Shown here: positions 15,244 to 39,697 of the stretch, piece after piece
Layout of the letters: every line of letters starts with the position of its first letter
Position numbering within the stretch: position 1 is the first letter of the stretch
Assembly: GCA_963734565.1 (NCBI GenBank)
Contig: CAVTHM010000003.1
Location: forward strand, 139,610-203,609
Direction of reading: 5' to 3'
Length of the DNA stretch: 64,000 bases
Source of the DNA: an uncultured Thermoleophilia bacterium
GTDB taxonomy: Bacteria > Actinomycetota > Thermoleophilia > Gaiellales > Gaiellaceae
Notes under the pieces: model-generated
Databases searched by the model: none
The model's input: the letters and a program-made list of their open reading frames with translations, nothing else
Told to the model about the DNA's origin: nothing
Program-made: the position numbers and the translations under genes

Positions 15244-15693
15244 ATGGCAGACATCCACGACAAGGAACGAGCGCTGTTCGCAGAGGTCGCGCCGCAGGTC
15301 GAGCGCGACGTCCCCGGCGTGCAGGTGCTCGCCCTCGAGCTTTCCGGACGCGAGGCGTTCACGGTCTACGTCGACCACCCGGCCGGCGTGGACATCGCGC
15401 TCTGCGAGCGCGTCACGAGCGTCCTCCGGCCGTACCTGCAGGAGTACACCGTGGAGGTCTCCTCGCCCGGCAGCGAGCGCCCGGTCCGGAGGCCCGAGCA
15501 CTTCGCGGAGGCCGTGGGCCACAAGGTCGCGCTGCGCATGTCGGAGGAGGTCGGCGGCCGCCGCAAGCTCCGCGGCGAGGTGCTCGCCGCCGGCGACACG
15601 GCGGTGACTGTCTCGACCGGTGACGAGCCCGTGGACGTCCCCTATGCAGCAATTGTCCGCGGGAACCTGATCGACGAAGAGGTGACGACATGA
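15244..15693 (+). CDS. rimP: ribosome maturation factor RimP
   Basis: Translation reads ..L.L.L......V.V.VD.P.GV....CE.V...L........Y.LEVSSPG.ERP.., directly upstream of nusA. Confidence 0.85.
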
Positions 15694-17105
15694 GCCGAGA
15701 GATTGTCGAAGCGGTCCGCGAGCTGGAGCGCGAGAAGAACCTGGAGAGCGGCGTGCTGGTCAGCGCGCTGCGCGACGGCCTGCTCGCCGCCTACAAGAAG
15801 ACTCCGGGCGCCTACCGCCACGCGACGGTGGACCTCGACGACGAGGGCGAGTTCCGCGTGATCGCCATCCACATGCCCGCGGACCTCGAGGAGAAGCTCC
15901 TCGACGAGGCCCGCGAGCGCGCGCTGACCGACCTCGAGCGCATCGAGGAGGAGACGGGCGAGCGCCAGCACACGCTGCTTTCCGACGACGATCTCCAGAT
16001 CGACTGGGACGAGGTCCCCGAGAACCTGATCGAGCGCGAGGACGTGACGCCGGAGGGCTTCGGCCGCATCGCCGCGCAGACGGCGAAGCAGGTCATCCAG
16101 CAGCGCATCCGCGAGGCGGAGCGCCAGATCATGTACGAGGAGTACATCGACCGCGTGAGCGAGGTCGTCACCGGCATCGTCCAGCAGGCCGGCGACCGCA
16201 ACAACGTGCTCGTTGACCTCGGCAAGGTCGAGGCGCTGCTGCCGCGCTCCGAGCAGGTCGACGGCGAGCGCTACGAGCAGGGCTCGCGCATCAAGGCGGT
16301 CATCACCGAGGTGCGCTCGGGAACGAAGGGCCCGCAGGTGATCCTGTCGCGCCGCGACCCGGAGCTGATCCGGACGCTCTTCGAGCTCGAGGTGCCGGAG
16401 ATCGCCGACGGGCTCGTCGAGATCCGCGGCGTCGCCCGTGAGCCGGGCTACCGCTCGAAGATCGCGGTCGAGTCGCATACGCAGGGCGTCGACCCGGTCG
16501 GCGCGTGCGTCGGCCCGCGCGGCTCGCGCGTCCGCATGGTCGTGTCGGAGCTGCGCGGCGAGAAGATCGACATCATCCCGTGGAACACGGAGCCGGCGCG
16601 GTTCATCGCCAAGGCCCTGTCGCCCGCGCGCGTGCGCGAGGTGCTCGTCGACGACGACACGCGCGAGGCGACCGTGATCGTCCCGGAGGACCAGCTGGCG
16701 CTGGCGATCGGCAAGGAGGGGCTGAACGCCCGCCTGGCCACGCGGCTCACCGGCTGGAAGATCGACATCACATCCGATGTCGAGTTCGCGCAGCAGGAGG
16801 CCGAGGCGGCCTTCGGCGGCGGCGAGCGCGGGGAGGAGGAGTTCTCCGGTCGCTGCGCCGCGATCCTCGCGAACGGCAAGCGCTGCCCGAACGCCTCGCT
16901 CCCGGGCACCCGCTTCTGCGGGATCCCCGCCCACCAGGAGCTCGCGAGCAAGGCACCGGAGGAGCTCGTCGGCCAGGTCGTGCAGATCGGCGGCCCGTCG
17001 GTCAACGGCGACGACGAGGCGGACGCGGACGAGGCGCCTGTCGACCTCGAGGGCGAGCCGGTGGCCGCTGCCGCCGACGAGACCGAGGAGCGCGCCGGCG
17101 AGTGA
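15690..17105 (+). CDS. nusA: transcription termination/antitermination factor NusA
   Basis: Translation reads ..[20 protein letters not shown]..(S1)..G.I.....R......V.LG..EA.LP..EQ...E.Y..G.R.KA.I..V........P.V.LSR..PEL...LFE.EVPEI..G.VEI...AREPG.R.KIAV..., followed by KH domains. Confidence 0.95.
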
Positions 17106-17343
17106 TGCCGACGCGCACGTGCGCAGGGTGCGGCCGCAAGGCCGAGCAGGCGGAGCTCGTACGCTTCGTCGCCCCTGAAGGCGTCCTGACGCCAGGCCGG
17201 CGCGCACCCGGCCGCGGCGCGTACACGTGCCGGAGCGTCGACTGCTTCGAGCAGGCGCGCGCCCGGCACGGCTTCGACCGCACCCTCCGCCGGGCGGTGC
17301 GGGTCGATCCCGCGCTCGCTCGTCTCTACACTGGAGCCCACTG

Positions 17344-17344
<1 letters not shown>
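17105..17344 (+). CDS. ylxR: YlxR/DUF448 family RNA-binding protein
   Basis: [19 protein letters not shown]..........GRGAY.C....C, in the canonical position between nusA and infB. The ATG overlaps the nusA stop (GTGATG). Confidence 0.8.
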
Positions 17345-19341
<1,997 letters not shown>

Positions 19342-38340: not shown

Positions 38341-38745
38341 GTGGACGTCCTCGCCTCACCGCTTGCCGATGCGACCCTTGCCCCGGCCGGCTCCGAGCTC
38401 GTCCTCGTCGAGTGGGTCGACCCTGGGGGCGACCCGGGCGACCCGCAGCCGCTCGCGCCGTTCCATGTCCACCACCGCGACGACGAGGCCTGGTACGTGA
38501 TCGAGGGCGCGCTCGGCTTCCGGGTCGGCGACGAGCAGGTGGTCGCGCGCGCCGGCGACGCCGTGATCGTTCCGCACGGCACGCCGCACACGTTCTGGAA
38601 CGCCGCGGCCCAGCCGTGCCGCTACCTGATCGCGATGACGCGCGAGATCAAGGCGATCATCGACGAGGCACACGCGCTCGAGGACCGGAGCCCGGACGCC
38701 CTCGGCGACGTCTTCCGGCGGCACGACAGTGACCTCGTCGACTGA
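38341..38745 (+). CDS. cupin-domain protein
   Basis: Translation reads ..FHVHHRDDEAWYVIEGALGFRVGDE......GDAV.VP.GTPHTF.N.., a two-His/Glu cupin motif. Confidence 0.65.
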   Translation: MDVLASPLADATLAPAGSELVLVEWVDPGGDPGDPQPLAPFHVHHRDDEAWYVIEGALGFRVGDEQVVARAGDAVIVPHGTPHTFWNAAAQPCRYLIAMTREIKAIIDEAHALEDRSPDALGDVFRRHDSDLVD

Positions 38746-39391
38746 CCAGCGCGTCCGCGCGTACCTCTACGAGCGGTTCGTCGCGCTTGGCTCGCCGCCC
38801 GCCGTGGGCGAGACGGCCGACGCGCTCGGCCTGAAGGTGAACGAGGCTGAGGCTGCGTACCGGCGTCTCGCCGACGCGCACGTCATCGTTCTCAAGCCGG
38901 GCACGACCGACGTCTGGATGGCGGCGCCGCTCTCGGCGCGGCCGACACCGTTCCTCGTCACGACGTCGCTCGGGACGCACTTCGGCAACTGCGTCTGGGA
39001 TGCGCTCGGCATCGCGGCGATGCTGGGCCACGACGCGCGCATCGACACCGACTGCGCGGACTGCGGCGCGTCCATGCGGCTCGAGGTTCGGGCCGGTGAG
39101 CTCGACGCGGAAGGCGTTGCGCACTTCGCCGTCCCCGCCGCGCACTGGTGGGACGACATCGGCCACACCTGAGCGACCATGCTGGCCTTCCGGTCGGAAG
39201 CGCACGTCGACGCCTGGTGCGAGCAGCGCGGCCTGGAGCGCGGCGCCTCGTTCCCGCTGGGGACCTGCTGGCGGCTTGCACAGGCCTGGTACGGCGACCG
39301 CCTGTCGCCCGAGTGGAGCCGCCGCACGCCGGCCGAGGCGCAGGAGGTCTTCGATCACCTCGGGCTGACGGGCGATTTCTGGCGCTTATGA
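38729..39391 (+). CDS. MerB-like (alkylmercury lyase family) protein with an in-frame TGA at 39170-39172: candidate selenocysteine codon, otherwise a nonsense-interrupted pseudogene
   Basis: ORFs 38729-39172 and 39179-39391 share one frame. The joined product matches MerB blocks (..GNCVWDALGIAAMLG.., ..DCADCGASMRLEV.., ..T[TGA]ATMLAFRSEAHVDAW..). The TGA appears to align with catalytic Cys159 of MerB. Confidence 0.65.
39185..39201 (+). promoter_or_regulatory. SECIS-like hairpin downstream of the in-frame UGA
   Basis: G-(C bulge)-CUUCC-GGUC-GGAAG-C. The GGUC loop occupies nt 23-26 counted from the U of UGA; as I recall it, E. coli fdhF has bulged U17 and a GGUC loop at nt 22-25. Confidence 0.45.
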
Positions 39392-39445
39392 ATCCACGGT
39401 CTGCGGGATGTCGTACCCCAGACAACGAAATAGGATGGAGAACCG

Positions 39446-39697
39446 ATGCCTCTTTACATGGACATGCACACCATCGACGGCGGCGTGACCCTCGACGATG
39501 TCGCCGAGGCTCACCGCAGAGATCTCGAGGTACAGGGCAAGTACGGCGTCGACTACAAGTCGTACTGGGTCGACGAGTCGTCGGGCAAGGTCTTCTGCCT
39601 CGTCGAGGCTCCGGACCCCGAGACGGCAGCGCACGTGCACGCCGAGGCGCACGGCCTCGTCGCCGACGACATCTGGGAAGTCAAGCAGGGCAGCTAG
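39446..39697 (+). CDS. DUF4242-family small protein
   Basis: MPLYMDMHTI.GGVTLDDVAEAH..DL.VQ.KYGV.Y..YWVDE..GKVFCLVEAPD.E.A..VH.EAHGLVAD.I.EV, with RBS AGGATGGAG. Confidence 0.7.
   Translation: MPLYMDMHTIDGGVTLDDVAEAHRRDLEVQGKYGVDYKSYWVDESSGKVFCLVEAPDPETAAHVHAEAHGLVADDIWEVKQGS

Follow-up and report, generated by a model that had tools for sequence, protein, structure and literature searches.

Does a TGA codon inside a predicted organomercurial lyase gene end the protein, or is it read as selenocysteine (Sec)? The question is raised by positions 38729–39394 of a 64,000-nucleotide (nt) stretch of contig CAVTHM010000003.1, hereafter the window, which comes from an uncultured bacterium of the Gaiellaceae (Actinomycetota). 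An initial annotation, made from the letters of the window alone, had proposed that two neighbouring open reading frames (ORFs) are one gene of the MerB family, with TGA at a catalytic Cys position and a hairpin resembling the selenocysteine insertion sequence (SECIS) of Escherichia coli fdhF. We judge it highly probable (roughly 0.88) that the locus is a real and intact MerB-family selenoprotein gene, with Sec on the column of MerB Cys159. Conservation of the TGA, purifying selection on the sequence behind it and conservation of the hairpin strongly support this core proposal.

One MerB domain spans the internal TGA

The 5′ ORF (38729–39172, forward strand) starts with GTG, encodes 147 amino acids (aa) and ends with the TGA at 39170–39172. 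Beyond this codon the same frame continues as GCG ACC ATG and runs to a TGA at 39392–39394, giving 220 sense positions and one internal TGA. This confirms the frame described at the outset, in which the two ORFs are parted by the TGA and two sense codons. Gene callers split the locus into the 147-aa ORF and a 70-aa ORF that begins with the ATG at 39179.

For the domain search, the joined product was written with Cys at the stop. The MerB family of Pfam (PF03243) gave a single match that covered residues 68–189 of the product and positions 1–126 of the 126 in the profile, at 102.3 bits against a cutoff of 27. Because this one match spans the stop, the TGA cuts through a single domain, and the joined 220-aa product reads as a single MerB-family protein, as had been proposed. 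In the HMMER alignment to crystallized MerB (3f2g, 3fn8) the TGA falls on Cys159, C88 on Cys96 and D91 on Asp99; the initial annotation had likewise placed the TGA on the catalytic Cys159 and recognized the Cys96/Asp99 block. The hairpin (Table 1) begins 13 nt 3′ of the UGA, with 19 nt between UGA and loop, and the loop occupies nt 23–26 counted from the U of the UGA. The hairpin coordinates and loop position first reported all match the sequence.

The TGA is conserved across phyla and followed by coding sequence

The column of the TGA in homologues had been named at the outset as the place to look for Cys or TGA, and both were found there. Relatives were taken from two scans: a genome scan with one genome per species, which returned at least 529 relatives and of which the best 80 loci were analysed, and a metagenome scan that was deliberately seeded with Cys forms and of which 80 loci were analysed. 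TGA occupied the Cys159 column in 80 of 80 genome loci and in 79 of 80 metagenome loci (159 of 160 together), across at least six phyla; the single exception, in the metagenome set, was TGC, a Cys form. The genome loci belonged to Acidobacteriota (31), Actinomycetota including Gaiellaceae (27), Chloroflexota (10), Gemmatimonadota (8), Planctomycetota (2), Neomarinimicrobiota (1) and Rhodobacteraceae (1). At no family locus was the internal stop TAA or TAG. Among proteins, 115 of the 120 best matches were 138–169 aa long and ended exactly at ...WWDDIG[FHY]T. Cys was present on the same column in the rare full-length homologues P0014, P0021, P0025 and P0026 and at locus L130; the full-length homologue P0022 has Gly at the column.

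The Gly comes from L082:68-775 (P0022), where GGA replaces the TGA and the GGUC hairpin is intact. This locus lies on a single 1.3-kb contig from one sequencing run, and the GGA may stem from a recent mutation or a read error, or it may mark a genuine variant without activity.

The frame 3′ of the TGA stayed open for 72–81 codons in nearly all loci and for about 73 codons in the window gene. Mean pairwise amino-acid identity was 52% downstream of the TGA versus 46% upstream, and codon-position entropies of 1.03/0.85/1.51 downstream versus 1.03/0.91/1.55 upstream gave a coding-type pattern on both sides. Against the two closest relatives, L166 (87% identity) and L167 (84%), which come from other samples and both carry the TGA, the ratio of non-synonymous to synonymous substitution rates (dN/dS) was 0.19–0.26 downstream and 0.13–0.15 upstream. 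The dN/dS values, the identities and the entropy pattern indicate that the part behind the TGA is translated and under purifying selection in the window lineage.

A translated downstream part might also arise from true termination at the UGA, with separate 147-aa and 70-aa polypeptides made either throughout the family or after loss of Sec decoding in this organism. Gene callers and the National Center for Biotechnology Information (NCBI) annotation do report two genes, Sec machinery was not found within the 64-kb window, and the codon two places past the TGA, at 39179 in the window, is ATG in 116 of 148 genes. In the other 32 genes (22%), however, this codon is ATC or ATT, so that a downstream protein with its own start codon cannot be the rule in the family. 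Termination alone would also leave unexplained why the stop is always TGA; a split would break the single MerB domain and lose one catalytic ligand, the Cys homologues are contiguous, and a selected RNA hairpin stands at the place expected of a SECIS and is lost when the codon is TGC (see below). We therefore regard two polypeptides as improbable.

Decoding of the UGA without Sec, through near-cognate read-through as Trp or Cys or through a reassigned UGA, with the hairpin as a read-through stimulator, is very improbable. In other systems, structures downstream of a stop codon are known to stimulate its read-through, and the sequence data do not directly identify the inserted residue. The real terminators of the same genes, however, are TGA in 92, TAG in 35 and TAA in 19 of 146 cases; UGA is thus a normal terminator here, and the code is not reassigned. 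The homologous residue is a metal-ligand Cys, which makes a classic Sec/Cys pair, the tetraloop is the GGUC of E. coli fdhF, and SelB and SelA occur in carrier lineages.

The hairpin behind the TGA is maintained as RNA structure

When relatives were compared, 80 downstream segments aligned without gaps, and RNAalifold predicted for them a five-pair stem with a GGUC loop. In the named nine-pair helix, 86.5% of the cells of these segments were paired versus 46–60% with the 3′ partner slid. Among 143 distinct sequences, the GGUC loop was present in 118; pair 18–31 was C-G in 135 and G-C in 5, and pair 22–27 was C-G in 112, U-A in 7, G-C in 5 and A-U in 3.

The stem is made of the codons of a motif that matches the F-x-S block of MerB, and the whole-alignment covariation score is modest, with many pairs invariant, as would suit a hairpin that is a by-product of the conserved L-F-R-S-E-E-H peptide and has no RNA function. 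Synonymous sites, however, are constrained far beyond the codon usage of the genes themselves: at the hairpin Arg is CGG in 86% of cases (29% elsewhere in the same genes), Ser is TCG in 89% (32%), Glu is GAA in 79% (31%) and Phe is TTC in 100% (78%). Relatedness among the sequences makes the Fisher p-values for this bias look more significant than they are, but its direction is unambiguous. Compensatory changes preserve pairs, several of them at the cost of the residue: Arg-Ser CGG TCG becomes Trp-Ser TGG TCA or Arg-Ser AGG TCT, and Leu...Glu CTC...GAG becomes CTG...CAG. In the Cys-form control (n = 2), L081 encodes the identical FRSEEH peptide through TTC CGC TCC GAG and has no hairpin, its fold being at shuffle level (z = +0.36), and the hairpin is also absent from L130. 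A peptide by-product is accordingly a highly unlikely account of the hairpin, whose conservation among TGA-containing orthologues, with compensatory changes, and absence from both Cys forms speak for the original proposal on this point.

The window hairpin also agrees in every respect with the published bacterial SECIS model: the loop has 4 nt and starts with GG, the stem has 5 base pairs (bp) plus an outer pair, UGA and loop are 19 nt apart and the minimum free energy (MFE) is −8.9 kcal/mol (PMC13188914). Rfam gave no relevant match around the TGA site.

The initial annotation had likened the hairpin to the E. coli fdhF SECIS. The fdhF element as given there occurs exactly in the fdhF genes of 5419 of 5426 E. 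coli genomes, and its GGUC loop lies at nt 22–25. Both elements are short minihelices inside the coding sequence, directly 3′ of the UGA, with the same GGUC tetraloop, which in E. coli fdhF binds SelB through G23 and U24; in the window the loop lies at nt 23–26, one nucleotide farther from the UGA. The resemblance at the bulged nt 17 is confined to the window lineage, which has a bulged pyrimidine, C39186, where fdhF has the bulged U17; most orthologues form a continuous CUCUUCC/GGAAGAG stem and most family members a continuous stem of 7–9 bp without the bulge.

An Acidobacteriaceae subgroup (L051, L052, L056, L060 and L061) differs in columns 19–30, where CGG TCG is replaced by CGT GCA, giving a 4-bp stem and a six-nucleotide CGUGCA-type loop. 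The element fits the published SECIS model (PMC13188914) and may represent a SECIS variant, perhaps one that pairs with another SelB.

Fold and predicted active site

Eight residues are invariant across 144 family members, namely C88, W90, D91, H132, P136, U148, E157 and W187; several of them, and a family-specific pair of cysteines, are located in Table 1. The pair C109/C112 is a possible second metal-binding or hand-off site, and together with H132 and E157 it may point to a second metal site or to a different catalytic detail. The fold was modelled with AlphaFold 2 on the Cys homologue P0014, which is 50% identical to the window protein, and the model reached a predicted local distance difference test score (pLDDT) of 94.5. 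Foldseek searches of the PDB with this model returned MerB2 (5c17) and MerB (3f0o and others) as the best matches, with template modelling (TM) scores of 0.6–0.72 over about 195 columns, E values of about 1e-10 and a probability of 1.00. A carbon–metal lyase function can reasonably be inferred from the conserved triad and the fold.

Sec-decoding machinery and points against a selenoprotein

Sec machinery does occur among carriers of the gene and related lineages, which supports Sec decoding indirectly. In L012, an Actinomycetota metagenome-assembled genome (MAG) with a TGA copy, the 3′ end of selB (L012:2-235) lies on the same contig, 10 kb upstream of that copy, and the last 78 residues of that gene match the SelB winged-helix domain PF09107 at 66.9 bits. 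The sister contigs L164:6967-10282 and L165:6963-10282 hold the corresponding selA–selB operon, broken into 4–5 ORFs by frameshifts. Such frameshifts in indel-rich assemblies account for the dozens of 40–136-aa 'SelB C-terminal domain' proteins in databases. Proteins named SelA are present in Actinomycetota and Pyrinomonadaceae MAGs, none of them tied to the assembly of the window itself.

The window and the loci of relatives were searched with SelA, SelB and SelD of E. coli as bait. Two matches were rejected: the 'SelB' match in the window is translation initiation factor IF-2 (infB, beside nusA; Table 1), and the 'SelD' match in L056 resembles AIR synthase and lacks the Cys/Sec motif at the N terminus.

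Several observations weigh against a Sec-containing MerB-type enzyme at this locus. No selA, selB, selD or tRNA-Sec gene was found in the 64-kb window or in the flanks around close relatives, and ARAGORN found no tRNA-Sec in the window, which has no tRNA gene of any kind, or in about 1.5 Mb of relatives' loci. By itself the hairpin is weak evidence: the MFE of the 23-nt minihelix corresponds to z = −1.3 and was equalled by 19 of 200 shuffles, and on a 60-nt stretch RNAfold favours a competing helix. A loose scan of the high-GC window for a TGA that has open frames on both sides and is followed, 14–37 nt downstream, by a hairpin of 5 bp or more whose loop contains G gave 57 matches; a GGUC loop was present only at 39192–39195, and the rest were taken as background. 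The 57 matches show that a TGA with a hairpin means little in high-GC DNA unless homologues support it; the significance of the hairpin comes entirely from the comparison with relatives and none of it from the window alone. As to function, no merR, merA, merT or merP and no other informative context lies nearby, and the enzymatic assignment leans on homology at about 20% identity to MerB. H132, E157 and C109/C112 have no counterpart in MerB, so that chemistry or substrate may differ; because of these residues, MerB-like chemistry on a non-organomercurial substrate is possible.

A nonsense pseudogene or an assembly-specific base-call error, in which TGC or TGT was mutated or misread to TGA, was the alternative offered by the initial annotation and would suit the noisy project assemblies, with their frameshifted selA–selB on sister contigs and a relative with GGA at the codon on a single-run contig. 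It has, however, a negligible chance: it is excluded by the TGA that 159 of 160 independent relatives, spread over six phyla or more, have in common, by the TGA of the two closest relatives, from other samples, and by the purifying selection downstream (dN/dS 0.19–0.26).

Relation to SaoL and MerB

The initial annotation had known of no characterized Sec-containing MerB-type enzyme, and here it had missed a precedent. SaoL is a MerB-like selenoprotein with a C-U motif in which Sec162 aligns to MerB Cys159 (Haft & Gwadz, bioRxiv 10.1101/2022.07.06.499078; J Bacteriol 2023). It is itself a prediction, a selenocysteine-assisted organometallic (SAO) lyase that is not biochemically characterized, and it is encoded in a nine-gene SAO locus, with reports limited to strict anaerobes of the Firmicutes, Deltaproteobacteria and spirochaetes (10.1101/2022.07.06.499078). 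The selenoprotein catalogues of 2022 and 2026 list no MerB-fold protein other than SaoL (PMC9312934, PMC13188914).

The window protein shares with SaoL the MerB superfamily, Sec on the Cys159 column, the Cys96/Asp99 equivalents and mis-annotation as truncated at the UGA. In other respects the two are unlike. Against the SaoL model (NF040728) the window protein scores 40 bits where the cutoff is 140, and only its N-terminal part matches, over profile positions 11–134. Its Sec motif is H-T-U-A-T, with a family consensus of [FYH]-[TN]-U-x-T, rather than C-U, and its family has invariants of its own in H132, E157 and the CxDC pair. The window gene stands alone, without an SAO locus; no SAO-type transporter or other conserved neighbours were found at the window locus or across the 160 loci. 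Its family is found in Actinomycetota, Acidobacteriota, Chloroflexota and Gemmatimonadota of soil metagenomes, whereas reports of SaoL are limited to strict anaerobes.

With MerB and MerB2 (PDB 3f0o, 3f0p, 5c17) the family has in common the fold, as modelled for the Cys homologue, the Pfam family and the aligned catalytic Cys/Asp/Cys columns. The window protein nevertheless falls far below the cutoffs of the MerB equivalogs (NF009710 and NF033555), at 39 bits versus 193 and 28.3 versus 200, with about 20% identity. Its predicted third ligand is Sec where MerB has Cys, a chemically different ligand in a site of preserved geometry; its family carries a conserved C-terminal extension (...GLTGxFWxL), and its gene lacks the mer neighbours of mer-operon MerB. 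By sequence, the window family thus has the look of an independent, second Sec-containing clade of the MerB superfamily, separate from SaoL and from mer-operon MerB.

Genomic context

The GTG start of the gene lies within the 3′ end of the upstream cupin gene, the two sharing 17 nt (38729–38745), which suggests co-transcription, and a SCO4226-like gene lies directly downstream (Table 1). From this arrangement the initial annotation had envisaged a new small system of cupin, lyase and DUF4242 genes, an idea that did not survive comparison: no neighbour family occurs in more than 10 of the 160 loci, and the cupin recurs in one other locus. The closest Gaiellaceae relatives (L166 and L167) keep the SCO4226-like gene and have an esterase gene (PF00756) in the place of the cupin; no more distant locus retains the SCO4226-like gene. 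The pattern reflects inherited local synteny and not a functional module.

In these closest relatives the esterase gene, too, abuts or runs into the start of the MerB-like gene, and the database protein P0019 is called as an esterase–MerB fusion. Within 10 kb on each side the neighbours in the window are housekeeping genes, namely pnp, dapB, a MacB-type ABC transporter gene, dapA, an HD-GYP gene and the RNase J gene. With nusA and infB, and further on pnp, dapB, dapA, RNase J and ftsK, the selenoprotein gene is hosted by a conserved actinobacterial housekeeping region.

Table 1 Positions of the candidate selenoprotein gene, its elements and selected neighbours in the window
Feature	Position	Strand	Remarks
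MerB-family selenoprotein gene (predicted), complete	38729..39394	+	220 residues; GTG start; in-frame UGA as Sec148; terminator TGA 39392-39394
UGA codon, predicted to be read as Sec, residue 148	39170..39172	+	Equivalent to MerB Cys159
SECIS-like minihelix	39185..39201	+	Stem CUUCC 39187-39191 / GGAAG 39196-39200; loop GGUC 39192-39195; pair G39185-C39201; C39186 bulged
C88-V-W-D91 codons, Cys/Asp half of MerB catalytic triad	38990..39001	+	Aligned to Cys96/Asp99; C88, W90 and D91 invariant in 144 members
C109-A-D-C112 codons, family-specific CxxC pair	39053..39064	+	C109 kept in 97% and C112 in 93% of 144 members
H132 codon	39122-39124	+	Family-specific; invariant in 144 members
E157 codon	39197-39199	+	Family-specific; invariant in 144 members
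Cupin gene	38341-38745		Upstream neighbour
SCO4226-like gene	39446-39697		PF14026, putative nickel-binding, 83 aa; downstream neighbour
nusA	15690-17105		
infB	17227-19341		Encodes IF-2

Discussion

Our reading of the locus is that of a single functional gene whose product would be a cytosolic MerB-fold enzyme with an active site of Cys88, Asp91 and Sec148. During translation the UGA at 39170 would be recoded to selenocysteine, the minihelix with its GGUC tetraloop recruiting SelB–GTP–Sec-tRNA(Sec) to the ribosome as it approaches, in the manner of E. coli fdhF. Homology to MerB suggests that the metal of an organometallic substrate would be held by the thiolate and the selenolate and that the aspartate would protonate the departing carbon, so that the carbon–metal bond is cleaved; the selenolate would be the more nucleophilic ligand, with a lower pKa and a very strong affinity for soft metals. 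The data themselves show the single gene, the conserved UGA, the Cys homologues, the conserved SECIS-like RNA, the MerB fold and the aligned triad; the insertion of Sec in this organism, the lyase chemistry and the identity of the substrate are the parts of this scheme that we infer. Because the loop is identical to that of the E. coli fdhF SECIS, expression and read-through work in E. coli looks feasible.

Members of the family are spread widely among soil bacteria, and the overwhelming majority are Sec forms. In the sampled DNA, Sec and Cys forms stand at roughly 160 to 2, which suggests that selection strongly favours selenium at this metal-binding catalytic position. The family appears to be unannotated as a selenoprotein family. 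No model of NCBIfam release 20 recognizes the window protein, and the NCBI record of a close relative consists of a 144-aa 'organomercurial lyase' and a 70-aa hypothetical protein. MerB goes unmentioned in the main text of the GOS paper, and the literature searched makes no mention of the clade, of which a prior listing in Haft & Tolstoy 2025 or in the supplementary tables of BSepDB is possible. Hundreds of orthologues are deposited, like this gene, in the same two parts, a truncated 'organomercurial lyase' and a 70-aa hypothetical protein, and a family model would correct many records.

More tentatively, and with some doubt on our part, the family may be an unrecognized, mer-independent group of selenoenzymes, with the window gene as its type example, carried by hundreds of species from the phyla that dominate soils (Acidobacteriota, Actinomycetota, Chloroflexota and Gemmatimonadota). 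Its members would cleave carbon–metal bonds with a Cys/Asp/Sec site, for example in the demethylation of traces of methylmercury or other organometal(loid)s. The carriers are largely aerobic soil lineages that are not usually considered rich in selenoproteins. If the enzyme does cleave Hg–C or similar bonds, it would be a candidate for a selenium-dependent degradation of organomercury that mer-operon surveys overlook, and the availability of selenium in soil would be tied directly to organomercury turnover outside classical mer resistance.

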